IMG/VR virus record: IMGVR_UViG_2778261201_000003
Span: 1-11,715 of that record
Strand: one strand, 5' to 3'
From: a virus
Lineage: Duplodnaviria; Heunggongvirae; Uroviricota; Caudoviricetes
DNA: 11,715 bases
A program made the translations under genes and the position numbers. Position 1 is the first letter of the stretch. Each line of letters starts with the position of its first letter. The notes beneath the pieces were generated by a model. The model saw only the letters and a program-made list of their open reading frames with translations. It did not search any database and was not told the origin of the DNA. This document shows, piece after piece, positions 1-11,715 of this stretch.

Positions 1-714
1 ATGTGGGTCAATAAGTATATTGACGATTGCACTGATGAGGATTTAAACGATCGTGACTTTATTGCATCAGTTGTTGACCGGGCTATTTTTCATTTCGCGA
101 TTAATAGTATATGTAATCCTGGGGATAATAAAGATGCGACTCCCATTGAACGATGTACTTTTGATGTAGAAACTAAGAATGGCCTTCCCTCCACGGTTCA
201 GCTATTTTATGAGGAATCTAAGGATAATGAACCTTTAGCGAATATACATTTTCAAGCAATAGGTTCTGGTTTTTTAACGTTTGTTAATGCCTGCCAGGAA
301 CATGATGACAACAGCTTAAAATTATTTGCTTCGCTGTTAATTTCACTTTCATATTCTAGTGCCTACACAGATTTAGCCGGAGCAGAAAAAGTGAATATTA
401 ATGAATATAATGAGAACTATCTGACAGCTCAGTTTGAAGAATTATCTCAACGTGATATGAAGAAGTACCTGGGAGAGATGAAGCATCTGGCGGACCGGGG
501 GGGGATGAAATTTGATGACTATCTGGATAAAATGTCACTTCTGGTGAATGAAGGAAAGCTCGAACCTGATATTTTAAGCAAAATGCGAGATGCTGCACCG
601 AAATTAATTGACTTTGCTAAGTCGTTTGACCCAAACTCAAAGGAAAAGATTAAAATACTTACAGATACTTCTAATTTAATTTATGATTTATTCGGGGTTA
701 AATCGGCGAAATAA
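1..714 (+). CDS. yjbM: Low-GC hypothetical protein, YjbM-like (DUF2713-type); may start upstream of the window
   Basis: 237-aa ORF ending TAA at 712-714, followed by a hairpin plus T-run at 754-783. The symbol is inferred from size (~235 aa) and position upstream of dusA in E. coli, not from recognised sequence motifs. Confidence 0.5.
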   Translation: MWVNKYIDDCTDEDLNDRDFIASVVDRAIFHFAINSICNPGDNKDATPIERCTFDVETKNGLPSTVQLFYEESKDNEPLANIHFQAIGSGFLTFVNACQEHDDNSLKLFASLLISLSYSSAYTDLAGAEKVNINEYNENYLTAQFEELSQRDMKKYLGEMKHLADRGGMKFDDYLDKMSLLVNEGKLEPDILSKMRDAAPKLIDFAKSFDPNSKEKIKILTDTSNLIYDLFGVKSAK

Positions 715-753
715 TATGTGAAGTTCTTCGATGGTATGGAAGGCATTACATAA

Positions 754-783
754 AAGAACCTAATACTTATTGGGTTCTTTTTT
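754..783 (+). terminator. Rho-independent terminator after the yjbM-like gene
   Basis: Stem AAGAACC (754-760) pairs with GGTTCTT (773-779); followed by TTTT (780-783). Confidence 0.5.
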
Positions 784-1064
784 CTTCTATCAGTGCCATT
801 AGCAGGAAGAGATATCACCGGAGTTTAATGTGTGATTTTTTATTTATCGTCGAACCTGGATTGTTTATCATTGTCCTTAACAAGGCTAACGGCTAATAAG
901 ATTATTTCCATCACTTCGTGAGAGCTTCATGCCTTGATTTGATCTCAATTTTCTTTTGCAATGAGACAGGCGCTTCCTGTTGTTATGGTATAGTACCCCG
1001 CTATTGAGCCTCCTGAACAGTGATGCTGAATAACATAACCCAATGATATATCGATAAAATAATC

Positions 1065-1187
1065 TCTACATTTGAAAATGCACGGTAATTCTGAAATGCA
1101 AAAAATCAACCAAACCAGCGCAATGCCTGAAAAAACTGACGTTCACTGGAGTGGTCGGTTTAGCGTTGCACCAATGCTCGATAGGAT
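1065..1187 (+). repeat. attL-side copy of the dusA 5' region (native chromosomal version)
   Basis: About 81% identical over ~110 bp to 10302-10411 (21 mismatches by hand alignment); identical blocks include ATGCCTGAAAAAACTG and ATGCTCGA; similarity stops after ~1187. Confidence 0.65.
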
Positions 1188-1200
1188 GTACCGTTTTTGA
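1078..1200 (+). pseudogene. dusA: Displaced 5' fragment of native dusA (40 codons then TGA)
   Basis: Translates to MHGNSEMQKINQTSAMPEKTDVHWSGRFSVAPMLD then diverges (RMYRF*); parallels the N-terminus of the intact dusA at 10302. Confidence 0.6.
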
Positions 1201-1325
1201 AAAACAAGTAGTTATACACTTTGTGGGAGCCTATTGGGAACCCGGTGTTTTCATTTCAAGGTGTAATCCATGCCGGGCATCAGAATGAGATATAATGAGA
1301 TTTTTAGTGTTCCGCTTGAGAGTCT

Positions 1326-1862
1326 ATGATGCTTACCCTAGACGAGATAGGTCAATCTGTACGTAACAATATCCAGTTGATTATTGATCATGTCGGCTTA
1401 CCTCTTGCTGTTGGTCCGCTCAGTGATGATGATTACAAGATTCTGTGTGGTGGCTATGGTGAGCTTGAATGGGACTATGCGTTAAGCACCTATGGCAACT
1501 CCAGAGAAAAGTATGAGTTCTGCATAAAACTTGTTCAGCAAGGTCGGGTTCAGGGAATACCATCAGGAGCAGCAATTTGTGTTTATGGGGTTGAAGAAAA
1601 CATCTTTCGTATCCATATGATCGAAAGGTTTTCTAGAGAAGATGAATCTCACCCATTGAAAGGGCGCATGGTTTTACTCACTCTTATGAGTGCTTTTATA
1701 TTTTGTAAAGCTGTTGAATGTAAAGTTGTCCACATTGTAGAGCCAGTACCAGAACTGGTGCAGTATTACGAGTCTTTTGGTTTCCGCATGGAACAGTGCG
1801 GTTATGTGATGTCTGCAGTCATTGATGAGCTGCAGGATATCTTTCTTAAATTTGCTCAGTAG
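1326..1862 (+). CDS. Hypothetical cargo protein, possibly a GNAT-fold acetyltransferase
   Basis: 178-aa ORF; C-terminal segment KVVHIVEPVPELVQYYESFGF resembles the GNAT beta-strand/helix/YxxxGF pattern; no canonical Q/RxxGxG/A motif seen, so function is tentative. Confidence 0.5.
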   Translation: MMLTLDEIGQSVRNNIQLIIDHVGLPLAVGPLSDDDYKILCGGYGELEWDYALSTYGNSREKYEFCIKLVQQGRVQGIPSGAAICVYGVEENIFRIHMIERFSREDESHPLKGRMVLLTLMSAFIFCKAVECKVVHIVEPVPELVQYYESFGFRMEQCGYVMSAVIDELQDIFLKFAQ

Positions 1863-2058
1863 GTATAGACGAGAAGGGTCTACAAATTGTAGGATACCCG
1901 TCCAGATTACCTTAAAGGTACATCTATGGCAGTCGTTTTGTGCTTAAACTACTAAGAAACGATGTCACCAATCGACATGATCGATTGGCATAAGTTAGCG
2001 AAACAAGCTAGCTTTAAAGAGAGGGTTAGAGGCGCCTTTACTGTCTCGGGAGTTTTCT

Positions 2059-2232
2059 ATGAAAGATCAAAAAGCAACCAAGCCACAGGTTAAGTTCGAC
2101 ACAATGAAAGCATTCGCAGGTATGGGTGCTGCTGTTGAAGTTCTGATGAAGGCTGCTCCTAATGCGTTCACTCACGCTACTGTCTCTGGTAAAGAGCAGC
2201 AGGGTAAGCTTCGTCGTCGCAAAGCAGCATGA
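2059..2232 (+). CDS. Small basic hypothetical protein (57 aa)
   Basis: ATG at 2059 preceded by GGGAG (2048-2052); ends TGA 2230-2232; followed by a strong intrinsic terminator; not in the ORF track because it is under 60 aa. Confidence 0.5.
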   Translation: MKDQKATKPQVKFDTMKAFAGMGAAVEVLMKAAPNAFTHATVSGKEQQGKLRRRKAA

Positions 2233-2252
2233 TCATAGCTGGTGCTTTTTGA

Positions 2253-2278
2253 AAACCCGCCTTTAGGCGGGTTTTTTC
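2253..2278. terminator. Bidirectional Rho-independent terminator
   Basis: AAACCCGCC (2253-2261), loop TTTA, GGCGGGTTT (2266-2274), then T-run; A-run upstream gives a U-tract on the minus strand too. Ends the plus small ORF and the minus-strand operon. Confidence 0.75.
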
Positions 2279-2279
2279 T

Positions 2280-2561
2280 TTAGTGATGTTCTTTGCCCTT
2301 CTGTTTGCTTGTTCTGACCTGTTCCCACTCGATACGTCCTTCTTCTCGTCTTTTGTCTATGTATTCCGCAAGATCCTGAATATTGATGCAACGTTTTGCT
2401 TTTTGTGATGTGCCGATGCGATATGTTGGAACGGGCAACTTACAAGCGTTTGCTTTTGCTTCTGCCGTGGCTGGACTCATGCCAAAGTACTTTTGGCTAA
2501 CTGCTGAGAGTTCAATGTTAGGGGTATTGAATTCAGCCATCAGTAAAAACAAGGTGTTCAT
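2280..2561 (-). CDS. PrtN/AlpA-like small DNA-binding protein (possible regulator or excision factor)
   Basis: Start chosen at ATG 2561 (MNTLFLLMAEF...) with GGAG 7 nt upstream; the MNTLFLL N-terminus resembles PrtN-family proteins as I recall them. Confidence 0.55.
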   Translation of the reverse strand: MNTLFLLMAEFNTPNIELSAVSQKYFGMSPATAEAKANACKLPVPTYRIGTSQKAKRCINIQDLAEYIDKRREEGRIEWEQVRTSKQKGKEHH

Positions 2562-2597
2562 AATTTTCTCCATCAAAACCGGCTGCACCCGGGAAAA

Positions 2598-3170
2598 TCA
2601 TAATTCTGTGCTGGTGGCAGGAATTAATTTCTGCCAGATAGCGGAAACATATTTTGCCTGATGACGAGCATCAGCCAGGGCGTTGTGCCGTTCGCCATCG
2701 AAAGGCATGTCCATTTTTGGGTCGAATCCGATGGAACGCCCAAGCGTAACGATCGTGCGCGCATCGTGATCATTCCAGTACGCCCATGGGCAGATTTGTC
2801 CTGCTCGCTCATAAGCTCCGCGTAAAATTACGTTGTCGAAGTTGGCTCCGTTACCCCAGACTTTTAAATATTTCGTATTGTCTGCGTGCCGATTAATGAA
2901 ATGGCTCAGTTCAGAGAGTGCATCGCTGATCGACAAAGTATCATCAATACAGATTGCAGCTCGTGCTTCAGGGCTTTGTTTCAACCACCACAGGATGGTG
3001 TCGCCGTCAGGTGTGGCCCCTTGCTCCATAGCACTGTCCAAGCTGACAGCCGTATAGAATTCTTGTCCGATGTCTCCGGTTTCTGGGGTGAAGAACACTG
3101 CGCCAATAGAAACGATCGGCGCATCCTTATTTTTCCCCATCGTCTCAAGGTCGATCATTAAGTTGTTCAT
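2598..3170 (-). CDS. DEDDh-type 3'-5' exonuclease (DnaQ-like fold)
   Basis: Motifs MIDLETMG (Exo I), WGNGANFD (Exo II) and HNALADA (Exo III); start ATG at 3170 overlaps the upstream stop (ATGA) with GGAGG upstream. Confidence 0.8.
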   Translation of the reverse strand: MNNLMIDLETMGKNKDAPIVSIGAVFFTPETGDIGQEFYTAVSLDSAMEQGATPDGDTILWWLKQSPEARAAICIDDTLSISDALSELSHFINRHADNTKYLKVWGNGANFDNVILRGAYERAGQICPWAYWNDHDARTIVTLGRSIGFDPKMDMPFDGERHNALADARHQAKYVSAIWQKLIPATSTEL

Positions 3171-3451
3171 CACTTTACCTCCTGCGGCGGTTCTTGTATT
3201 GGCATCGGCTGAGCTATATATAGCGGCTGAACATACCAGCCCTTTGATAACCAACTGTCAGCAACGTTTTTACTTCTGGTTATTGCCGGAATACCTAAGC
3301 CATTGTCTGAATGCAGCCATGCCACCGGATCCTCTTCCAGCGATGCCAGAGCAATTTCATAAGCACGGCGCTCAACATTGTCTCGCACGTCCATGCTGCT
3401 GATTCGTTCTTTGATTTCTTTAATCAGTTCTTTATCGGTAAATGTGGTCAT
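3170..3451 (-). CDS. Hypothetical phage protein (93 aa)
   Basis: ORF translationally coupled on both sides (TAATG overlap at 3451, ATGA at 3170); GGAG upstream. Confidence 0.6.
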   Translation of the reverse strand: MTTFTDKELIKEIKERISSMDVRDNVERRAYEIALASLEEDPVAWLHSDNGLGIPAITRSKNVADSWLSKGWYVQPLYIAQPMPIQEPPQEVK

Positions 3452-3813
3452 TATGCTCCAGCCTCCGGTGCTTTTGGCATTACAGCCCAGTGAGTGATAT
3501 TGACGTTTTCAAGGTCCCCGACCTGAAATGTCCACTGCCATTCTCCGGTTTCTTTTTGCCCCCATGTATACCAGAGAGAACGCCAGCCAATCAGCCAGCC
3601 TTCTCCATTAGCATCAAATAACAGAATACTTTCGTTCGCTGGCGGCAGTTCAGCTGACACTGGTATTACTTTGTTTTCCAGTGCTGCACATTTAGCTTCA
3701 AGCGCATCAAATTTACGCACCAGGTACTCAGCATTTGTTTCGTTCACTTTCAGATCTCGCGGTACACATTTCCCGCGAAGAAACCCTTCCATTTCGAAAA
3801 CATTCATGCGCAT
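3451..3813 (-). CDS. DUF551-like phage protein
   Basis: 120-aa ORF with Trp-rich C-terminal region (DANGEGWLIGW...W...W) typical of DUF551 proteins in lambdoid early regions; overlaps the upstream gene end by 10 nt. Confidence 0.6.
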   Translation of the reverse strand: MRMNVFEMEGFLRGKCVPRDLKVNETNAEYLVRKFDALEAKCAALENKVIPVSAELPPANESILLFDANGEGWLIGWRSLWYTWGQKETGEWQWTFQVGDLENVNITHWAVMPKAPEAGA

Positions 3814-4340
3814 TTGCGTAACTCCGATAACTCGTTAAAACGTTCCATAAACATCCCATAGGCATGGCCTGGCGACAGTGGAATAACTTTGAACATCTCT
3901 GTTGCCGGGATACCTTCCAGTACAGGCCAGAAAGAGCCATCATCAAGCCCGAGATCGCGGCGTTCGGTTGCCAGCATGATGAGATCGGCATATTTCACGG
4001 GCGTACTCATAACCGGGGGTAACCCGTATTTCTCACGGATTACGGCGTCTATTTTTTCTTCCATCCGTTTATAGTCAGGAAGAAGGCGTTTCAGTGGTGC
4101 GGGAATGTCCTGGCAATACGCTTCTGTTGCATCATGCATTAACGCTTCAAAAGCAAATTCGTGCGGTACCAGCTGGCTGCAAAGCACCGCATGTTGGGCG
4201 ACGCTGTAGAAGTGTGAAAGATGTCCTGCAAAGCGACAGATATTTGAAAGGGAAACCGCGATATCGTTAATAACGATGTCATCTTTATTTATCCTGTCAT
4301 AATAAAAATGCTTCCCGGAAAAAGTTTTAATAAATGACAT
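3804..4340 (-). CDS. HD-domain phosphohydrolase, YfdR-like (5'-deoxynucleotidase family)
   Basis: Start at ATG 4340 (MSFIKTFSGK...) with GGAG 8 nt upstream, giving 178 aa; H...HD metal-binding pattern (AGHLSH, MHDATEAY); resembles E. coli CPS-53 YfdR as recalled. Confidence 0.75.
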   Translation of the reverse strand: MSFIKTFSGKHFYYDRINKDDIVINDIAVSLSNICRFAGHLSHFYSVAQHAVLCSQLVPHEFAFEALMHDATEAYCQDIPAPLKRLLPDYKRMEEKIDAVIREKYGLPPVMSTPVKYADLIMLATERRDLGLDDGSFWPVLEGIPATEMFKVIPLSPGHAYGMFMERFNELSELRKCA

Positions 4341-4429
4341 TTTGTTCTCCACGTATATGCGCTGCACCGCGCTGAATTTTGATTGCAGCAATCCAGCCCA
4401 TTTGACATGGGATGATTGCTGCAATTTTT

Positions 4430-5347
4430 TTAAGTTGTTGGATTTTGGCTTTTATCTTCTTTGTAAGAAAGAAGGTCACACATCAAATTAACTACCTTGC
4501 TGAATTGGAAAAGGTCAGTGCCAGTCTGATGACGCCACTGGAATGCTTTATCATCTTCATCATTAAATGTCTGAGATTGAGTATTGATGCGCGAAAAATG
4601 GAAATTTTCGGTAAGAATGAAGGTCACACCGCAACCGGATAACTCCATTTTATCAGCAGTGAAACTACTACTAAGGCTATCGGCCAGTTCGCTTTGAATT
4701 GACTCATGCTCAGCTGAGTAGCGAATAATTTCCTTTTGATCTGCGTAGCGTGATAGCTGAATATAATTCCCGACAGTGAATCCTTCAAATGCATTGGCTG
4801 CACCATTGATGTAGTTCTTCAGGCGTGTAGTCAGTCCATTCTTGATATCACTGATGTTGATTGTTTCTGTTTTCACTGAACCGACAACCTTAATCAGCAT
4901 TGCGCATACCATACCGGCTATTATTTTATTGGTTGTGTTGATTACCAATAATTTCTCATCAGTGCTGTACAATGCAAGAATCAGCGTAGACTTAACAAAT
5001 GCCTGTTTGCATAGATCTACTCGTACGTTATCAATAATGGCCAGTCGTTCGGCACGCTTTAATTTATTCCCGGACATATTTTCGATTGTTTGGATTCGAG
5101 AATTAGCTTCTTTCATGACGACATGTCGGGGAATTATTTTCTGATCATGACGGATTACCATTGCGTACCCACCAGATATCGGAGTTACCAGTTCACCAGT
5201 GACAGGATTCTCTACAAAAGAGGACCGTGAAAATTCTGTTTCCCCGATTTCAGAATAAGGGAGTTCGAGAAGATGCCCTTCAATAGCCTGTATACTAGGT
5301 AATGTTGCTCGGTACACAATTGCGTTACGAAATTTTGGTAATTTCAT
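4430..5347 (-). CDS. RdgC-like recombination-associated protein
   Basis: Start at ATG 5347 (MKLPKFRNAIVYR...) with GAGGAAAA RBS, 305 aa; N-terminal FRN..VYR and KIIPRHVV segments parallel E. coli RdgC. The open frame extending to 5497 is GC-rich non-coding read-through. Confidence 0.7.
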   Translation of the reverse strand: MKLPKFRNAIVYRATLPSIQAIEGHLLELPYSEIGETEFSRSSFVENPVTGELVTPISGGYAMVIRHDQKIIPRHVVMKEANSRIQTIENMSGNKLKRAERLAIIDNVRVDLCKQAFVKSTLILALYSTDEKLLVINTTNKIIAGMVCAMLIKVVGSVKTETINISDIKNGLTTRLKNYINGAANAFEGFTVGNYIQLSRYADQKEIIRYSAEHESIQSELADSLSSSFTADKMELSGCGVTFILTENFHFSRINTQSQTFNDEDDKAFQWRHQTGTDLFQFSKVVNLMCDLLSYKEDKSQNPTT

Positions 5348-5397
5348 TCTATTTTCCTCTGCACAAGATATTAGTTTCTCCACAAAACAGAGAAGAA

Positions 5398-5745
5398 CAC
5401 CTGCGGTGGCAGCCGCCCGGATGGATTGGGTTATGAGCCCGTCGTCCGGTGATGCTCTTCTCTGTTTTGTAAAAAGAGCGGTACCAGCCGGAAGCAAGTG
5501 TACAAACTGGTACCGCGAGGACTACACACAGCATAAAGTTGTGGTGCCGGGTGCCTCCCGGTGCCTGGCGAAGGTTGCACACCAGGCGGGTGGGTATCCA
5601 CAGAAGGTCGACTGTCAGCCTCAACCTTAACCCGCGTGCGCTGAGCCGCATTCACCACAACGCTAAGGATTCTCTCTGGTTGAAAATACTTAGCTGTTAT
5701 GTGCCTGTCTTTTCACCACTTCAGGCTCGGTGGTATCCTTTTAAG
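5398..5745. other. GC-rich, hairpin-dense non-coding element (candidate structured RNA or regulatory region)
   Basis: Four overlapping ORFs in different frames, all Arg/Pro/Gly-rich and not protein-like; perfect 10-bp inverted repeat GCGGTACCAG/CTGGTACCGC (5478-5516); further stems CCGGG/CCCGG (about 5546-5560), GCCTGG/CCAGGC (about 5564-5588) and GTGG/CCAC (about 5592-5603). Confidence 0.3.
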
Positions 5746-5770
5746 TCCGTATACATAAAAGGAAAATCAA

Positions 5771-6016
5771 ATGACTTTTGATGAAAAAGAACTTGATAAT
5801 GCAATTAATAAAATCATCGTAACGTCGCTCTTTTCCTGTCTCAGCGACACTCAGCAGAAACAGTTCTACGAATCGGCTTTCAACATGATCGAGCGTTGTT
5901 GTTTCTGCGATGCCGACGAGCTACCTGAAAAAATCAGGAAACAGTTGGCTGATGCTCTTCGAGTGCGACTTTCTGACCAATTTTCTGAAATGTACTCTCC
6001 GAATTTGGACAAATAG
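5771..6016 (+). CDS. Hypothetical small protein, reverse-oriented moron-like gene
   Basis: 81-aa ORF with AAGGAAA RBS; upstream candidate promoter (TTCACC, 16-nt spacer, extended -10 TGgTATCCT at 5712-5739); 12-bp bulged hairpin at 6026-6051 after the stop. Confidence 0.4.
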   Translation: MTFDEKELDNAINKIIVTSLFSCLSDTQQKQFYESAFNMIERCCFCDADELPEKIRKQLADALRVRLSDQFSEMYSPNLDK

Positions 6017-6209
6017 AAAAAGGCCATTTCCATTCAGGGTCTGATGGAAATACTTCAGCCTGTTCCAAAGCACGGCGTAAAGAGAATACAACTCCAGCCA
6101 TAATCTGATGTTTCCCATTGGTCCAGCTATCGCCGCTCTGATCTACAGGAGCGGCTATGTCGTATGACCAAACGACTTCACCACTATTGTTTAAAATCTG
6201 GACTTTCAT
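5934..6209 (-). CDS. Hypothetical protein (91 aa)
   Basis: ATG 6209 with GGAGG 12 nt upstream, just after the zinc-ribbon gene stop; its 3' end overlaps the plus ORF 5771-6016 by 83 bp, so one of the two may be spurious or shorter. Confidence 0.4.
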   Translation of the reverse strand: MKVQILNNSGEVVWSYDIAAPVDQSGDSWTNGKHQIMAGVVFSLRRALEQAEVFPSDPEWKWPFSICPNSESTFQKIGQKVALEEHQPTVS

Positions 6210-6217
6210 TTTGTTCT

Positions 6218-6421
6218 TTAACCTCCAGATTTCCGCGCATCTAAAGGCGCATTCTCATTTGGTGTGAACTGAATAGTTGTGCTGATATTGATTAATGCCC
6301 CGACACACAAGACTACGCACTCAGAGCAGATAGCAACTTCATCTTTTCCGCCTTTGGCGATGATTTTTTTTGCCTGCAGCTCGTTTGCGCCACAAAACGA
6401 GCATGTGAAATAACGGTTCAT
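6218..6421 (-). CDS. ClpX-type zinc-ribbon small protein
   Basis: YFTCSFCG...AICSECVVLC gives a CxxC...CxxC pattern closely resembling the ClpX N-terminal zinc-binding domain; start chosen at ATG 6421 (alternative ATG 6439 has no RBS). Confidence 0.6.
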   Translation of the reverse strand: MNRYFTCSFCGANELQAKKIIAKGGKDEVAICSECVVLCVGALINISTTIQFTPNENAPLDARKSGG

Positions 6422-6519
6422 TTGCGCTCTCTTACACATAGTATTTAACGAATCATCCGGTCATTCATACGCCACCGGCGGCTACTTCGTGGGCGTCCTG
6501 CCTGTTCGTTGTTTCGCTT

Positions 6520-6555
6520 GGGTACATTATGTATCTCAAAGGTACATTGTCAAGT
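6520..6555 (-). promoter_or_regulatory. pL-like early-left promoter with candidate repressor operators
   Basis: Minus strand -35 TTGACA (6553-6548), 16-17 nt spacer, -10 CATAAT/ATAATG (about 6531-6525); GGTACATTATGTATC (6521-6535) overlaps -10 and GGTACATTGTCAAGT (6541-6555) overlaps -35. Confidence 0.5.
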
Positions 6556-6580
6556 ATAAAAAAACCTGCCGAAGCAGGTT
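6556..6580 (-). terminator. Rho-independent terminator downstream of the cI-like gene
   Basis: On the minus strand: AACCUGC, UUCG tetraloop, GCAGGUU, then a run of 7 U. Confidence 0.65.
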
Positions 6581-6592
6581 CATAAACATTGA

Positions 6593-7267
6593 TTAGGCTT
6601 TGATTTTGTATCTTCTTGGTTTTCCTGAGAAAATCACTGTACCAATTATAGAGCAATTACCGTTGATCTTAATGTAAGGCTCAGGCCAGTTTGGGTTTAA
6701 CGCTTTGAGATAACGCTGTGTCCCATCTTCTATCAACCTTTTGAAGGTGGTTTCACCTGTATCGTGCATCAATGCAATAACGTCGTCACCGTGGCAGGCA
6801 GGGACTTCAGGATCTACAAAAATCATGTCTCCCGGGCGGTACTCATCAATCATTGAATCACCAATCACCCGCAAGATATAAGTCATTTCGCCACAGGGTA
6901 CAGGGCAGGGATAAGTTTCTGCTGTGCTCAAATCAACCTCAGAATAGCCAACTTCTTTCCATGCTCCGGCCTGTACCCATGATATGACAGGGACTAACGT
7001 TATTTGTTTGTTAGTGATTGAAACATCAGGTTTTTTTGTGATGTTCGTGGTCTGGTGTTCTTGATCAAGCCATCCGACAGGCAGGTCGAAACATTTTTCG
7101 ATGTGCCGTGCCATGCTGTCACCGATATTTTTAGTAGCACCATCTCCCATAAACCTGCTGGTCTGGGTTGGCTCGCGATCAATCATGGTGGCAAAGGAAG
7201 AATTCCCGCCAACACCATCTCTCAGTTTTCTGGCGTTAGACCGCCGGATGTCATGGACTGTTTTCAT
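6593..7267 (-). CDS. CI-like repressor with N-terminal HTH and C-terminal S24 (LexA-like) autopeptidase domain
   Basis: 224-aa ORF; candidate Ala-Gly cleavage site (VQAGAW); Ser in VIGDSM and Lys in TFKRL form the Ser/Lys dyad; divergent from the Cro-like gene. Confidence 0.85.
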   Translation of the reverse strand: MKTVHDIRRSNARKLRDGVGGNSSFATMIDREPTQTSRFMGDGATKNIGDSMARHIEKCFDLPVGWLDQEHQTTNITKKPDVSITNKQITLVPVISWVQAGAWKEVGYSEVDLSTAETYPCPVPCGEMTYILRVIGDSMIDEYRPGDMIFVDPEVPACHGDDVIALMHDTGETTFKRLIEDGTQRYLKALNPNWPEPYIKINGNCSIIGTVIFSGKPRRYKIKA

Positions 7268-7357
7268 AAAGAAATTAAAACCTTTGTACCGATAAGGTAC
7301 AAGTATCTTGAAGGTTCATGCTAATCATGTAATATGTATATCGGAGGTACATATTGT
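7268..7357. promoter_or_regulatory. Divergent cI/cro switch region with palindromic operator-like sites
   Basis: Perfect palindrome TTGTACC-gataa-GGTACAA (7284-7302); GGTACATATTGTATG (7346-7360) nearly identical to the pL-region site; candidate pR (TTGAAG 7308-7313, TAATAT 7330-7335); candidate leaderless pRM-like promoter on the minus strand (-35 TTGTAC, -10 TTTAAT ending 7 nt before the cI ATG). Confidence 0.45.
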
Positions 7358-7558
7358 ATGAAAGCGTATTGGGACTCTTTAACCAAAGAACAGCAGGGCG
7401 AGTTGGCCGGAAAAGTTGGCTCAACACCAGGCTACTTACGGCTGGTTTTCAATGGTTATAAAAAAGCCAGTTTTGTGCTGGCTAAAAAACTTGAGCAATG
7501 CACGTCAGGTGCAATTACGAAATCTGACTTAAGACCGGATATCTATCCGAAAGATTAA
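7358..7558 (+). CDS. Cro-like small HTH regulator (YdaS-like)
   Basis: 66-aa ORF from ATG 7358 with GGAGG at 7343-7347; the upstream ATG at 7334 lacks an RBS; motif GAITKSDLRPDIYP resembles Cro/YdaS-type proteins; divergent from the repressor. Confidence 0.7.
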   Translation: MKAYWDSLTKEQQGELAGKVGSTPGYLRLVFNGYKKASFVLAKKLEQCTSGAITKSDLRPDIYPKD

Positions 7559-7589
7559 CAGAACACCTTCAATTTTTAACCACAGAACG

Positions 7590-8102
7590 ATGAGGCTAAC
7601 CGTGGGTAAGCATCACTGGAAAGTAGAAAAACAGCCTGAGTGGTACGTGAAAGCTGTCAGAAAAACTATCGCGGCGTTGCCGGGGGGTTACGCTGAAGCT
7701 GCTGAGTGGCTGGATGTAACAGAGAACGCTTTATTCAACCGCCTTCGTGCAGATGGCGATCAGATTTTCCCGCTGGGATGGGCAATGATTTTACAGCGCG
7801 CGGCTGGCACTCACTACATTGCGGATGCTGTCGCACAGTCTGCTGGTGGGGTGTTTGTATCGCTTCCTGAAATTGAGGAAGTAGAGAACGCCGATATAAA
7901 CCAGCGCCTGCTGGAAGTCATCGAACAGATCGGGAGTTACTCAAAGCAGATTCGTTCGGCAATCGAAGATGGGGTATCTGATTTTCCCCTGTCCCCACAT
8001 CCCGTTTCGCTGCTTCTCCCAAACCAACCTTTCAAATATTTTTCTGAATCAGGTGATATTTCGCCTCTTCTCCTGTTTTTACAACAGGAGAAGCACTCAT
8101 GA
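7590..8102 (+). CDS. CII-like phage regulatory protein (putative, 186 CII/CP76-like)
   Basis: 170-aa ORF directly after the cro-like gene; size and position match CII of 186-type phages; real start may be GTG 7602 (GAGG RBS); stop overlaps the invertase start (ATGA). Confidence 0.5.
   Translation: MRLTVGKHHWKVEKQPEWYVKAVRKTIAALPGGYAEAAEWLDVTENALFNRLRADGDQIFPLGWAMILQRAAGTHYIADAVAQSAGGVFVSLPEIEEVENADINQRLLEVIEQIGSYSKQIRSAIEDGVSDFPLSPHPVSLLLPNQPFKYFSESGDISPLLLFLQQEKHS
8067..8093. promoter_or_regulatory. 27-bp perfect palindrome covering the invertase RBS
   Basis: CTTCTCCTGTT-tttac-AACAGGAGAAG (11-bp arms); the right arm contains the invertase Shine-Dalgarno AGGAG. Confidence 0.4.
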
Positions 8103-8662
8103 TTTACGGGTATGTTCGTGTATCAACAAATCATCAGGATACAGAGTTGCAACGTCTTGCACTTGAGTCAGCTGGCTGTGAGCGAATTTATGAAGAATAT
8201 GCCAGTGGCAGAACAGCTAATCGCCCTGTGTTAAAGGAATTAATTTCGGTGATGAAAAGTGGAGATGAGTTGATTGTCTGGAAGCTAGATCGGATAGGGA
8301 GAAATGTGCTACATGCGCTATTGATGTTTCAAAATCTGCACGAAAAAGGCGTTAATTTTCGGAGTATTACAGATGGTGTAGACCTGAAAACAGCAAGTGG
8401 TCGCTATAATTTCCGTAATATTCTTTCTGCTGCGCAGTATGAATCTGATTTGAATAGCGAGCGAACTTTAGCTGGTTTGGCTATTGCCAGATCCAAAGGC
8501 CGGATTGGTGGGCGTAGACCGAAGTTTAGCGACGAGCAGTGGCAACAGATGGGAGCGCTCATAGCGGCAGGGAAATCACGGCGTTATGTTGCACGTATCT
8601 ATAACGTTGGGCTATCAACCCTATATAAACGATTTCCTGTTACTGGCATTCAAACGAAATAA
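8099..8662 (+). CDS. Serine recombinase, Hin/Gin/Pin-family DNA invertase
   Basis: 187 aa; N-terminal MIYGYVRVSTNHQD with catalytic Ser; resolvase fold motifs (LDRIGR); C-terminal HTH (GKSRRYVARIYNVGLSTLYKR). Confidence 0.85.
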   Translation: MIYGYVRVSTNHQDTELQRLALESAGCERIYEEYASGRTANRPVLKELISVMKSGDELIVWKLDRIGRNVLHALLMFQNLHEKGVNFRSITDGVDLKTASGRYNFRNILSAAQYESDLNSERTLAGLAIARSKGRIGGRRPKFSDEQWQQMGALIAAGKSRRYVARIYNVGLSTLYKRFPVTGIQTK

Positions 8663-8702
8663 TTTAAAAGCAATTTAAAGAGTTATTTGTCTAATGTTGG
8701 AA

Positions 8703-8738
8703 GCCGCAGCCACGTCGTATGCAAGAACGTGCTGCGGC
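8703..8738. other. GC-rich hairpin in the convergent intergenic region (possible bidirectional terminator or binding site)
   Basis: GCCGCAGC(C)ACG pairs with CGTGCTGCGGC across a 13-nt loop; no clear U-tract on either strand. Confidence 0.35.
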
Positions 8739-8805
8739 TGGCTGGCGAACTTTCGATAGTGCGAGTATTGAATGATTTCCAGCCGTTACCGATTTTACGT
8801 GTTAA

Positions 8806-9054
8806 TTAGTGAACAAACCACTCGTCAGCAGATTCCCAGGTATCTTTCAGAGTCTCCTGAACAAAAGTTTTTGCAGAATCCTTATCTGCGGTGCGTGTAA
8901 CAGAAAGGCCATCGTTGCTGGTGGCTTTTACGATCACCTCTACATCGTCATAACGTTTACTGATGCGTCGGGTTAATTCTTCCTTTAACGCATCCACAGC
9001 ACCGGTTGGCATTTTAGTCATTTTTTCTTTGGCTATGCAGATTTCAATACGCAT
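8806..9054 (-). CDS. DinI-family DNA-damage-inducible protein
   Basis: 82 aa, [11 protein letters not shown]...[11 protein letters not shown] parallels E. coli DinI (MRIEVTIAK...ETWESADDWFV); two LexA boxes immediately upstream. Confidence 0.85.
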
Positions 9055-9067
9055 AAAAGTCCCTCTA

Positions 9068-9115
9068 TACTGTGTTTGTATACAGTATTATTTTTAACTG
9101 TATGGATAAACAGTG
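9068..9115 (-). promoter_or_regulatory. Two tandem LexA (SOS) boxes over the DinI-like promoter
   Basis: TACTGTGTTTGTATACAGTA (9068-9087) and AACTGTATGGATAAACAGTG (9096-9115), both CTGT-N8-ACAG; minus-strand -35 TTGACA (9119-9114) and a -10 TAAAAA-like hexamer overlap them. Confidence 0.75.
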
Positions 9116-10213
9116 TCAAGAGGTCTTATTTCTGCTCCTTTGGAGCTCTTCAAAACGATTATGTAAAGATTTCGGATACAGTTCGGTATATACCTGCCAT
9201 AGCACGTTTAATGAACGATGCCCTGTGACCTGGGCGACTTCCTCAATACTAAAACCAGCCTCAAATAAGCGACTTGCCCCTTCTCTACGCAAATCATGGT
9301 ATCGCAGATCCTTAATACCTAATTTGCTTCTTACCCTCTGAAATCCCGCAGTAACAGAAGTGCTGTTATATGGAAAAATGAATTCCGATTTTTTGGGCTG
9401 TCGTTGGACGATATCCCAGGCTTCCCCAAGCAAGGCTACTTTCATGTGGTTGCCTTCCTTTTTGCGTGGATCTTTCCTGTCTCTTACGAGTATAGATTTT
9501 TGTTCCTGGTCGAGATCTTCCCATCGTAACCGGCATACTTCTCCGATCCGCATACAGGACCACACAGAAAATTTGAGGATATCAACGAACGGAATTTTTG
9601 AGCATTTATGAGTAGATCGTTGTTGAAGGCCTTCAATGAGCATGTCCAGTTCATCAGATGCTGGTCTACGATTACGACGGTTTGATTTACCAATCAAACC
9701 AAGTTTAAGTAGATATGGGCGAGCGCTTTTCGCCGGGTTTGATGTGTAATTAATTCCGTATACAGGTTTGGCCGCATCCAGAACACTGCCAAGATAACTA
9801 ACATCGTGGCTGACTGTTGCTGGACCTGCACCAGCGTTGTTTCTTAGCCTGCAATGTTCAATTACGTCATTTTCTGTCAGTTCAGATAGTTTGATCGCGG
9901 AGATGTCACTATCCATAAGCAGTTCCAGCACATATCTTTTAGTACGGCCTGCTTTACCTCCGGCATTTGGGTCATTTAAATATTTGTGTAGTAAGTCACG
10001 GACTGTAAGTCCGTCAACTGCATTTGATGATGGAATGCCATATAGATCTAATTCCATCACTTTCTGTGTTCCCCATGTTTTGGCATGAGCATGTTTAGGG
10101 AATGTTTTGCTTTCCCTGTAAGTGATAACACCTTTTTCTTTGATAATCACATTACAGCGATAGCGTGGTGTGCCATCGGATTTTAGTCGTTTCTCTATGT
10201 TATAGTACGCCAT
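9116..10213 (-). CDS. int: Tyrosine recombinase, dusA-associated integrase
   Basis: 365 aa; C-terminal catalytic region with R...HDLR...GH...Y pattern (RYHDLRREGA, VTGHRSLNVLWQVYTELY); divergent from and adjacent to the dusA 5' end. Confidence 0.9.
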   Translation of the reverse strand: MAYYNIEKRLKSDGTPRYRCNVIIKEKGVITYRESKTFPKHAHAKTWGTQKVMELDLYGIPSSNAVDGLTVRDLLHKYLNDPNAGGKAGRTKRYVLELLMDSDISAIKLSELTENDVIEHCRLRNNAGAGPATVSHDVSYLGSVLDAAKPVYGINYTSNPAKSARPYLLKLGLIGKSNRRNRRPASDELDMLIEGLQQRSTHKCSKIPFVDILKFSVWSCMRIGEVCRLRWEDLDQEQKSILVRDRKDPRKKEGNHMKVALLGEAWDIVQRQPKKSEFIFPYNSTSVTAGFQRVRSKLGIKDLRYHDLRREGASRLFEAGFSIEEVAQVTGHRSLNVLWQVYTELYPKSLHNRFEELQRSRNKTS

Positions 10214-10232
10214 TACACGACCTCGTTATTTC

Positions 10233-10268
10233 GGGTTCCCATAAAACGTGGGAACCTGTGCGGGAACC
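10233..10268. promoter_or_regulatory. GGGAACC repeat cluster between int and dusA (candidate arm-type or promoter sites)
   Basis: GGGTTCCC (10233-10240), GGGAACC (10249-10255), GGGAACC (10262-10268); a further GGGAACC at 1236-1242 just inside attL. Confidence 0.35.
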
Positions 10269-10288
10269 TAACGCGAGAAAAATAGCCT

Positions 10289-10411
10289 GAAATGTTCAAA
10301 AATGCACGATAATCATGAAACACAAAAAATTAATCAAACCAGCGTGATGCCTGAAAAAACTGGTGTTTACTGGAATTCTCGGTTTAGCATTGCTCCTATG
10401 CTCGACTGGAC
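10289..10411 (+). repeat. attR-side copy of the dusA 5' region (island-supplied 5' end fused to native dusA)
   Basis: About 81% identical to 1065-1187; downstream of ~10406 the sequence continues as intact dusA. Confidence 0.65.
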
Positions 10412-11339
10412 GGACAGACATTGCCGCTATTTCTTGCGTCTGCTTTCCCGCAATACGTTGCTGTATACCGAAATGGTGACCACAGGGGCGATTATTCACG
10501 GTAAAGGTGATTACCTGGCGTACAGTGAAGAAGAACATCCGGTAGCGTTGCAACTCGGCGGTAGCGATCCGGCGGCGCTGGCACAGTGTGCGAAGCTGGC
10601 AGAAGCGCGTGGATATGATGAGATCAACCTGAATGTCGGCTGCCCGTCTGACCGGGTGCAGAACGGCATGTTTGGTGCGTGTCTGATGGGTAATGCGCAG
10701 CTGGTTGCCGACTGTGTGAAAGCGATGCGCGATGTGGTGTCGATTCCAGTGACGGTGAAAACGCGTATTGGCATCGATGACCAGGACAGCTATGAATTTC
10801 TCTGCGATTTCATCAACACTGTTTCCGGCAAAGGCGAGTGTGAGATGTTTATCATCCACGCACGTAAAGCCTGGCTTTCGGGGTTAAGCCCGAAAGAAAA
10901 CCGTGAAATCCCGCCGCTCGATTATCCGCGTGTGTATCAACTGAAGCGTGACTTTCCGCATCTGACAATGTCGATTAACGGTGGTATCAAGTCGCTGGAA
11001 GAGGCCAAAGCACACCTGCAACATATGGATGGCGTGATGGTCGGGCGCGAGGCGTATCAGAATCCGGGTATTCTGGCGGCGGTAGACCGGGAGATCTTTG
11101 GTTCCTCGGATACCGATGCCGATCCGGTGGCGGTAGTGCGCGCCATGTATCCGTACATTGAGCGTGAACTCAGCCAGGGGACGTATCTCGGCCATATTAC
11201 CCGGCATATGCTGGGTTTGTTCCAGGGTATTCCTGGCGCGCGGCAGTGGCGGCGTTATTTAAGTGAAAATGCCCATAAAGCGGGTGCTGACATTAACGTG
11301 CTGGAACACGCGCTCAAACTGGTGGCGGATAAGCGTTAA
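10302..11339 (+). CDS. dusA: tRNA-dihydrouridine synthase A
   Basis: 345-aa ORF recognised as E. coli DusA throughout; the first ~35 codons ([32 protein letters not shown]) differ from the displaced copy at 1078 and are island-derived. Confidence 0.95.
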
Positions 11340-11368
11340 CTTTTCACCAAAAAGTAGTCAAATTCACC

Positions 11369-11398
11369 ACGCCCTGCGCACCGTCGCGGGGCGTTTTG
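11369..11398 (+). terminator. Candidate intrinsic terminator after dusA
   Basis: ACGCCCTGCG, loop CACCGT, CGCGGGGCGT (one mismatch), followed by TTTT. Confidence 0.5.
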
Positions 11399-11419
11399 CT
11401 GTTAAATCAATAGATTATT

Positions 11420-11440
11420 TTTGGCATGATTCTTGTAATG
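11420..11440 (+). promoter_or_regulatory. Candidate sigma-54 promoter for pspG
   Basis: TGGCAT-N5-TTGTA (11422-11437) approximates the -24/-12 consensus TGGCAC-N5-TTGCA; pspG is known to be PspF/sigma-54 dependent. Confidence 0.4.
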
Positions 11441-11472
11441 CCAGCAAGAGATTTCATATTTGGGAGAGCATC

Positions 11473-11715
11473 ATGCTGGAACTACTTTTTGTGATTGGCT
11501 TTTTTGTCATGCTGATGGTCACCGGCGTTTCGTTGCTGGGCATTATCGCCGCGCTGGTTGTGGCGACGGCCATTATGTTCCTCGGCGGTATGCTGGCATT
11601 GATGATTAAGTTGCTGCCGTGGTTACTACTGGCGATTGCGGTGGTGTGGGTTATTAAGGCGATTAAAGCACCAAAAATGCCGAAATATCAGCGTTATGAC
11701 CGCTGGCGTTACTAA
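11473..11715 (+). CDS. pspG: Phage shock protein G
   Basis: 80-aa hydrophobic protein MLELLFVIGFFVML...KYQRYDRWRY; GGGAGAG RBS at 11462-11468. The 150-aa ORF from 11263 is an unsupported upstream extension overlapping dusA. Confidence 0.9.
   Translation: MLELLFVIGFFVMLMVTGVSLLGIIAALVVATAIMFLGGMLALMIKLLPWLLLAIAVVWVIKAIKAPKMPKYQRYDRWRY

Follow-up and report, generated by a model that had tools for sequence, protein, structure and literature searches.

The 11,715-nucleotide (nt) stretch of viral DNA analysed here, referred to as the window (IMG/VR record IMGVR_UViG_2778261201_000003, positions 1 to 11,715), carries on its plus strand an open reading frame (ORF) of 81 amino acids (aa) at 5771-6016. 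As the initial annotation had stated, this ORF runs antisense to a leftward operon (cI, a pL-like promoter, a zinc-finger gene and an ORF on the minus strand). Comparison with related loci places the plus gene where lambda and P22 have sieB, the classical exclusion gene expressed in the lysogen, and suggests that it forms, with the convergent minus ORF, a two-gene accessory module in the sieB slot of a lambdoid prophage of SfV/e14 type. We hold this reading, including the mechanism proposed for it below, with about even confidence. Reverse-oriented prophage accessory genes at the sieB position are already known as a kind; what is new here is a functionally uncharacterised member of that kind, and the most interesting by-product is the conserved docking site with a covarying hairpin at which it stands.

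Annotation of the locus is split. SfV and one record of the Prokaryotic Genome Annotation Pipeline (PGAP) list only the minus ORF, a RAST-annotated phage and another PGAP record list only the plus ORF (WP_000141753.1 in RefSeq; PHROG 3311; ATG start), and in the RefSeq records that we inspected one ORF or the other is called and both together never. Diverged homologues of the minus ORF were recovered by protein searches at 57-71% identity and their contigs compared. Every one of these contigs holds an intact 75-81-aa homologue of the plus ORF on the antisense strand, which most gene callers miss because the minus ORF runs on to 122 aa in several lineages. The plus frame is open in 8 of 8 diverged lineages, drawn from Escherichia, Salmonella, Klebsiella and Yersinia, at 50-65% identity. 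Codon analysis was carried out in all six frames of a five-lineage nucleotide alignment, and an 8-lineage set added Yersinia, Klebsiella and one remote locus. Over the 54 plus codons that lie outside the overlap with the minus ORF, the five lineages have 20, 17 and 46 variable columns at the first, second and third codon positions and a ratio of non-synonymous to synonymous substitution rates (dN/dS) of 0.12-0.29; the corresponding polymorphism-style ratio (pN/pS) is 0.30 across 8 lineages. These patterns indicate that the plus ORF is a genuine protein-coding gene under purifying selection.

It could be argued instead that only the minus ORF, orf33 of SfV, is a gene and that the plus ORF is a chance antisense open frame preceded by a chance promoter. 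An open frame opposite a real gene is common, only the minus ORF is annotated in SfV and some PGAP records, and a consensus scan does not call the promoter. However, two thirds of the plus ORF (5771-5933) lie outside the minus ORF and carry the 20/17/46 pattern and low dN/dS described above, and over those same non-overlapping bases the minus frame gives a dN/dS above 1 and is not coding-like. Furthermore, the plus frame is open in all 8 lineages, substitutions within the overlap follow it, and remote plus homologues stand alone, with a terminator of their own. We consider this explanation extremely unlikely, and the codon-position and dN/dS analysis of all six frames rules out the plus ORF as an antisense artefact.

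The minus ORF (5934-6209, minus strand, 91 aa; PHROG 3195; WP_001514782.1) is, on the same comparative grounds, a real gene and not an artefact. Its 64 non-overlapping codons show 29/19/48 variable columns and a pN/pS of 0.34 in the five lineages, and pN/pS is 0.31 across 8 lineages. The initial annotation had held that the plus gene would fall if conservation marked the minus ORF as the real gene and left the plus ORF unconserved; with pN/pS values of 0.30 for plus and 0.31 for minus, both ORFs show purifying selection, and that refutation therefore fails. Variation in the 83-nt convergent 3' overlap (5934-6016) is frame-specific. Across the 22 codons of 5933-5998 it tracks the plus frame (11/6/14), the minus frame giving 10/13/5 over 21 codons (5934-5996) with a pN/pS of 1.1, and from about 5999 on the pattern shifts to the minus frame. 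The conserved part of the minus protein comprises approximately residues 1-66, and its C-terminal tail is the antisense reading of the plus gene; the tail varies in length (91, 93 or 122 aa in total), the extension has a dN/dS above 1, and the tail appears to be largely a by-product of reading the plus gene in antisense. The 122-aa calls occur in L006, L009 and L010 (proteins P0041-P0043). Gene annotation mishandles the pair systematically, with the PGAP records inspected calling one ORF and gene callers extending the minus ORF to 122 aa and dropping the plus ORF.

Placement of the plus gene in the sieB slot rests on a 32-nt core junction element, GCCTGTCTTTTCACCACTTCAGGCTCGGTGGT, at 5703-5734, which also precedes sieB in lambda and P22 and ymfI in e14. 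Loci with no more than 60-70% identity in their coding regions share a nearly invariant 38-nt stretch upstream of the plus gene, and a pattern scan found the core in more than 119 IMG/VR contigs. In lambda (NC_001416) the core lies at about 34399-34430, between orf28/ral and a sieB gene that is convergent with N. The P22 core (AF527608; 1518-1550 of L135) is upstream of sieB, with P_sieB annotated in the record about 30 nt to its right, and the core of K-12 e14 (4426-4463 of L013) is upstream of the reverse-oriented ymfI. Sequences flanking 128 instances of the core fall into 27 clusters on the left and 44 on the right, in 57 combinations. A same-strand ORF of at least 35 aa is found within 250 nt of the core in 128 of 136 instances, its start usually 36-40 nt after the core, and the cargo ORFs among these instances belong to 29 unrelated families. 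The largest is SieB (PF14163, E = 3.2e-25) and the second is the plus protein of the window, where the ATG at 5771 gives an offset of 36 from the core and a cassette that belongs, by position, to the sieB slot. Overall, in position, orientation and the upstream element of sieB, these comparisons indicate that the plus gene occupies that slot.

Pfam and PADLOC scans, run on 10 of the 29 cargo families, named only SieB, and ten cargo families other than that of the plus protein gave no match in PADLOC. Many cargos of 60-100 aa (L037, L123, L116, L039, L129, L133 and others) have the look of small helical proteins and share a 'hydrophobic helix - L(T/S/P)xEQ - helix' arrangement that resembles the plus protein, and hhalign of the plus protein against the L(T/S)xEQ small helical cargos returned a probability of only 11%. 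A 3' overlap of 4-170 nt between the reverse-oriented cargo and the preceding ORF of the pL operon is common in the slot, and its recurrence with many cargos that are unrelated to one another suggests that convergent overlap goes with the site in general. Two tandem cores are present in L011 (5470-5507 and 6344-6381), and likewise in L012, each heading a reverse-oriented cassette of its own. One of these cassettes holds a homologue of the plus gene and the other a 160-aa hydrophobic, apparently membrane, protein together with a 29-aa ORF. Since each tandem core has its cassette, the slot can evidently hold stacked cassettes.

The core itself contains two interleaved dyads, GCCTG (5703-5707) with CAGGC (5722-5726) and ACCAC (5715-5719) with GTGGT (5730-5734). 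Compensatory changes are seen in L009, for both dyads, and in the Yersinia locus L138, for the first, and three or four single sequences break a dyad pair. The topology of the dyads resembles a pseudoknot, but with compensatory changes in two lineages only and pairs broken in 3-4 sequences we do not take an RNA pseudoknot as proven, and a protein site or a recombination junction are further candidate roles. Inspection also led us to set aside a LexA box, a lambda-type nut/boxB site and an intrinsic terminator on either strand, as spacing and sequence fit none of them, and Rfam returned no match at the core even at E values up to 5.

The last bases of the core supply the TGn and the first T of an extended -10, TGgTATCCT (5731-5739, plus strand), which is accompanied by a weak -35-like TTCACC (5712-5717) at a spacing of 16 bp and gives a predicted transcription start at about 5745-5747. 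The initial annotation had proposed a sigma-70 promoter here, followed by a good ribosome-binding site (RBS). The latter is borne out by the Shine-Dalgarno sequence AAGGAAA (5759-5765), which ends 5 nt before the ATG and is invariant in five diverged lineages. The promoter has a weak -35, and its score of 8/12 against a tool threshold of 9/12 is the reason that the consensus scan leaves it unlisted. The extended -10 is a different matter: TGnTAnnnT is kept in 49 of 50 distinct right flanks of non-SieB type, ahead of unrelated cargos, with TATCCT, TATTCT, TATGCT, TATACT and TATCTT as the hexamers seen and the start codon mostly 30-35 nt past the hexamer. The invariant bases are those that sigma-70 reads (TG, T-12, A-11 and T-7), which supports an extended -10. 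A promoter belonging to the plus gene is thus predicted, and well supported by comparison.

The same bases take part in a hairpin, recognised by covariation, whose arms TCCTTTTA (5736-5743) and TAAAAGGA (5756-5763) enclose a 12-nt loop. The 5' arm overlaps the -10 from the third hexamer base onward, and the 3' arm overlaps the Shine-Dalgarno sequence. Across cargos, about 30 different arm pairs occur at or near this position, the shortest of which (3-4 bp) may be chance. The best leader stems average 5.66 Watson-Crick pairs versus 3.65 in shuffled sequences, and in 40 of 40 flanks a Watson-Crick pair joins the fourth base of the -10 to the base opposite, with all four bases used. The geometry of P22 P_sieB is alike, its -10 TAAACT overlapping the arm ACTCT. 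An mRNA that starts about 7 nt past the -10 begins in the loop, which bars the cargo mRNA from forming the hairpin. Presumably the leftward pL RNA, or a different transcript, is where the hairpin acts, and in the pL RNA its loop would be complementary to the 5' end of the cargo mRNA.

These features invite a reading in which the upstream element is no promoter at all and serves solely as a junction for recombination or as part of the leftward RNA, with the plus gene transcribed by read-through from elsewhere. The core is conserved far beyond the needs of a -35 and a spacer, its dyads show compensatory changes, the hairpin overlapping the -10 covaries in the manner of an RNA stem, and in sieB-type cassettes the annotated promoter is about 30 nt further right. 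Left of the core, however, there is neither a plausible rightward promoter nor conservation, the 27 left flanks being unrelated, while the bases critical for sigma-70 are invariant with the fourth base free, and the spacing from hexamer to start codon is held tightly at 30-35 nt. Read-through transcription past a non-promoter element therefore strikes us as very unlikely, and we retain a predicted promoter of the plus gene's own in what follows.

The initial annotation had described a single autonomous gene. The unit is rather a convergent pair. In tblastn searches of all fetched loci, the plus and minus genes were found together in every sieB-slot locus, whereas the zinc-finger gene has other neighbours. 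A systematic tally gave co-occurrence in 27 of 27 sieB-slot instances, with overlaps of 74-176 nt; in the same tally other cargos share partners promiscuously and the plus gene never does. Likewise, the convergent neighbours of SieB (N or gp24) vary and do not overlap it. The pair is also present in Yersinia and Klebsiella. Furthermore, a remote plus homologue of 50% identity (P0062, locus L220) sits upstream of holin and lysozyme genes and beside a Fic/Phd pair, and there too it converges on, and overlaps, the gene for an unmistakable homologue of the minus protein. The unbroken co-occurrence and the recurrence in another phage region together argue for one two-gene module. More remote homologues, P0064 (L136) and P0066 (L137), lie in reverse orientation in the Q-lysis accessory region, which is likewise a classical site of morons; P0064, which has a strong terminator of its own, is without a minus partner, and P0066 has only a remnant of one. 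Overall, the comparisons indicate that the plus gene is a mobile accessory gene whose closer relatives travel with the minus gene.

Variable presence among related elements, which the initial annotation had offered as a check on its moron-like cassette, was found. The module is present in 404 of 5426 complete E. coli genomes, of which 2811 match some part of 5400-6500, and mosaic breakpoints fall at about 5733 and about 6211, most of the phage matches listed ending at about 5733. A profile search of genome contigs with the plus protein gave no confirmed match, and a protein scan of viral contigs returned only near-identical E. coli copies. The moron-like description accordingly holds for the real gene, its variable presence, the mosaic breakpoints, the conserved extended -10 and the sieB position, and does not hold for a terminator of its own or for a single-gene unit.

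In the mechanism that we propose, sigma-70 RNA polymerase would start in the lysogen at about 5746, from a repressor-independent promoter, and would yield a short-leader mRNA for the 81-aa protein. The protein would be a small cytoplasmic accessory factor of the prophage, and superinfection exclusion or abortive infection, as with the slot's best-known occupant, would be its most likely activity. On induction, transcription from pL would proceed leftward through the zinc-finger and minus genes and then antisense across the plus gene and its leader, and collision together with antisense pairing would shut the plus gene off, as in an excludon. The minus protein expressed from pL may be the cognate antidote, which would afford the phage self-immunity. 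An exclusion or self-immunity role for the plus gene or the module is thus inferred by analogy. As open reading frames, the two genes overlap by 83 nt here and by 74-176 nt in relatives. The K-12 pairs ymfI-ymfJ and sieB-ydaF have been listed as convergent excludons from RNA-seq (PMC12288877), and independently transcribed genes antisense to lytic operons have been described as accessory loci in Salmonella prophages (PMC7067206).

Several observations weigh against this exclusion module. Given its sub-threshold score, the promoter is no better than chance when judged from the window sequence alone, and the hairpin, being barred from an mRNA that starts at about 5746, implies that the upstream conservation partly serves another function. 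A terminator for the plus transcript could not be identified. Neither SieB nor any defence family in PADLOC shows similarity to the plus protein, and a Foldseek search of the model of this protein against PDB and BFVD found nothing below E = 1. The absence of a full partner at P0064 and P0066 means that the partner is dispensable. That the minus protein is an antidote is purely our inference, and the AlphaFold2 model of this protein is poor, with a predicted local distance difference test score (pLDDT) of 44.

The strict co-inheritance of the pair and its convergent overlap of 74-176 nt would also suit a regulatory role, in which the plus transcript or protein holds in check, in the lysogen, the leaky expression from pL of a minus gene taken to be harmful, the two genes forming a kil-control or toxin-antitoxin-like pair. 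The joint move of the pair to another genomic context, the excludon layout documented for analogous K-12 pairs, and the position of the minus gene in the early-left operon, beside kil-type genes in related loci, are consistent with such a role. However, the more remote plus homologues persist without a partner, nothing points to toxicity of the minus protein, and purifying selection on the plus protein makes a role as RNA alone insufficient. We find regulation of a harmful neighbour rather unlikely. A type II toxin-antitoxin pair was rejected outright, as the genes are convergent and not co-directional and Pfam and NCBIfam contain no toxin-antitoxin domains for them.

Alternatively, the plus protein may be some other lysogen accessory factor (a modulator of host physiology, an anti-defence protein or a factor in lysogeny maintenance), with the minus gene as an incidentally linked block. 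In favour of this are the lack of similarity to exclusion and defence families, the very diverse small uncharacterised proteins that the slot holds, and the frequency with which other cargos overlap the neighbouring pL gene at the 3' end. Incidental linkage sits poorly with the distribution of the pair, however: other cargos swap partners and the plus gene never does, and because the pair is kept in an unrelated context, block recombination within the pL operon cannot explain the linkage. This explanation, too, seems doubtful to us.

A bolder version of the exclusion module extends it to the whole slot. The core and the covarying hairpin would constitute a universal cargo dock of lambdoid phages, providing expression from the prophage and automatic silencing on induction, and the plus and minus proteins would be a new exclusion-and-antidote system of two proteins. 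In the prophage, the extended -10 built into the dock would drive expression of whatever gene is inserted there, and on induction the stem-loop of the pL RNA, complementary to the 5' end of the cargo mRNA, would silence the cargo, in effect a generalised sas-like or RNA-OUT-like switch for self-immunity. We offer this extension tentatively and think it improbable.

Among known systems, sieB of P22 and lambda is the closest. As with the plus gene, it is reverse-oriented in the pL operon, convergent with the first pL gene or genes, and to the right of the 32-nt core, and the arrangement of its -10, hairpin and Shine-Dalgarno sequence is alike. SieB, a membrane protein, is about 190 aa long and belongs to PF14163, whereas the 81-aa plus protein is predicted to be soluble and helical and has no sequence or fold relationship to it. 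According to what Ranade and Poteete reportedly found in 1993, SieB is expressed from the prophage and self-immunity is supplied during the phage's own lytic growth. The antidote, Esc, is an in-frame internal product of sieB, whereas the candidate partner here is a separate convergent gene; similarly, the convergent neighbour of SieB (N or gp24) varies and does not overlap, whereas the partner of the plus gene is constant and overlapping. Translation of P22 sieB is controlled by the sas RNA (PMC12197685).

The TaiEcA/AtiEcA system of phi80 comprises an opposite-oriented defence gene inside a lytic operon that encodes the antidote, and lytic transcription has been proposed to switch the defence off (PMC11364771). 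The module proposed here shares with it an opposite-oriented gene within a lytic operon that carries a candidate counter-gene. In contrast, the Tai/Ati operon is late and Q-dependent, not pL, the proteins are unrelated, and in the window the defence and antidote roles are putative. In e14, ymfI has the same core upstream, is likewise reverse-oriented, and overlaps the pL gene ymfJ by 63 nt. Unlike the window, Rac (sieB-ydaF) lacks a core that could be recognised at up to 9 mismatches. Comparison of the translations by eye gave no evident homology between the pair and YmfI/YmfJ of e14 or YdaF/YdaG of Rac.

Juhala and colleagues are said to have described in 2000 the morons of HK97 and HK022, each an extra gene between genes that are adjacent in relatives, with its own sigma-70 promoter and factor-independent terminator, and expressed from the repressed prophage. 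The module resembles these in lying between genes adjacent in related phages, in its sigma-70-type promoter (predicted here) and in its variable presence. It differs from them in having no factor-independent terminator of its own and in being a two-gene unit at a dedicated, conserved docking element instead of an arbitrary gene boundary. A geometric parallel is offered by the antisense pairing of RNA-IN and RNA-OUT in the insertion sequence IS10. As there, the predicted mRNA 5' end in the slot lies opposite the loop of a stem-loop of the other strand, and pairing would occlude the nearby Shine-Dalgarno sequence. The analogy is structural only, since no dedicated antisense promoter was identified here and the antisense RNA would be pL read-through.

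If the exclusion module is correct, about 7% of complete E. coli genomes, and prophages of Salmonella, Klebsiella and Yersinia as well, carry a prophage accessory module that has yet to be characterised. Its docking site, shared with sieB of lambda and P22 and used by 29 cargo families, provides a sequence-defined place at which to mine lambdoid prophages for new exclusion and defence genes, and the pair offers a model, open to experimental test, of how the phage turns such genes off while it grows lytically.

The sensitive homology and structure prediction that the initial annotation had called for were run. The AlphaFold2 model of the plus protein, built from a 10-sequence alignment, is a three-helix bundle with a pLDDT of 74.7 and helices at residues 5-21, 26-47 and 53-75; the protein is thus predicted to be a soluble three-helix bundle. 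No sequence match was found in Pfam, NCBIfam or PDB. In PADLOC-DB 2.0 the best hit of the plus protein was SspC at E = 0.035 over 24 residues, which is not significant, and the minus protein gave nothing. The remark that the protein belongs to no recognisable family thus holds for Pfam, NCBIfam and PADLOC, and needs amending in that the protein is PHROG 3311; neither that family nor PHROG 3195 of the minus protein carries a function annotation, and no family, fold or defence match was found beyond PHROG 3311. A profile search of 1.84 billion representatives yielded 21 representative clusters of the plus family at E <= 0.001, several of them fragments or frameshifted, from Escherichia, Salmonella, Klebsiella and Yersinia. 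Membership of the SieB family (PF14163) was rejected, as there is no Pfam match and an 81-aa soluble three-helix model stands against a SieB of about 190 aa. A CCxC metal site is doubtful because remote homologues lack the motif. The minus protein was also considered as an N-type antiterminator and rejected: its N-terminus, MKVQILNNSGEVVW, has no Arg-rich motif, a homologue stands in a late-region context, and true N and gp24 cluster apart.

The initial annotation had further described a terminator-like bulged hairpin right after the stop codon of the plus gene. A hairpin does exist at 6022-6051, and its likeness to a terminator did not withstand analysis. On the plus strand the fold has a free energy of -13.1 kcal/mol and a z of -0.49, with 57 of 200 shuffled sequences folding as well, and on the minus strand the z is -1.83. 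There is no U tract 3' of the hairpin on the plus strand, and the T-run on the minus strand encodes the conserved W-P-F of the minus ORF. An equivalent hairpin is absent from five diverged homologous loci, whose corresponding regions fold differently, so the structure is lineage-specific. Lacking a U tract, an extreme z and conservation, it was rejected as a plus-strand intrinsic terminator. A different 'putative rho-independent terminator' was assigned to orf33 by the authors of the SfV sequence (U82619, 25034-25066), corresponding to 5751-5783 of the window on the minus strand. It coincides in part with the start codon and RBS that the plus gene has on the opposite strand, consists of a TCAAA/TTTGA stem followed by TTTTCCTTTT, and by eye has no counterpart in the Salmonella locus L004, the sole lineage compared.

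By BLAST against complete E. coli genomes and phages, the window comes from a lambdoid E. coli prophage of SfV/e14 type, of which it represents the immunity and early-left region. Near-identical copies are flanked by intE/xisE, yfdP/yfdQ, an XRE/LexA-type repressor and cro-like genes, and the phage matches include SfV and two SfV-like coliphages. The cI repressor gene occupies 6593-7267 on the minus strand and is followed by its terminator (6581-6562, minus strand). Just downstream of the latter, reading leftward, is the pL-like early-left promoter TTGACA-16-CATAAT (6553-6526, minus strand), which matches the consensus at 11/12 positions and is predicted to drive the minus gene, as it would after induction. 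The first gene after pL encodes a ClpX C4-type zinc finger (6218-6439, minus strand; PF06689, E = 1.4e-10); it is found with other cargos and is missing from several loci that carry the pair, which places it outside the module. No N-like antiterminator is evident in the window, where SieB-type loci have N or gp24.

The structured GC-rich block that the initial annotation had placed directly beside the plus gene proved to be the small RNA (sRNA) STnc100 (5469-5691, minus strand; Rfam RF02076, 49.1 bits against a gathering score of 47), the 5' end of which is 12 nt left of the core. STnc100 is a prophage sRNA recently linked to PasD (bioRxiv 10.64898/2026.05.13.724894), and its promoter regions have been examined by RpoD/RpoN chromatin immunoprecipitation with exonuclease treatment (ChIP-exo) in Salmonella LT2 (PMC10794520). 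The 'frameshifted hypothetical protein' that PGAP places over STnc100 in locus L001 (about 5348-5658 of the window) is probably spurious. Finally, the Salmonella relative L004 carries at 3552-4706, between the repressor and the pL module, a 384-aa gene with an HSDR_N domain, another candidate prophage defence gene, at the rexAB/bstA-type position.

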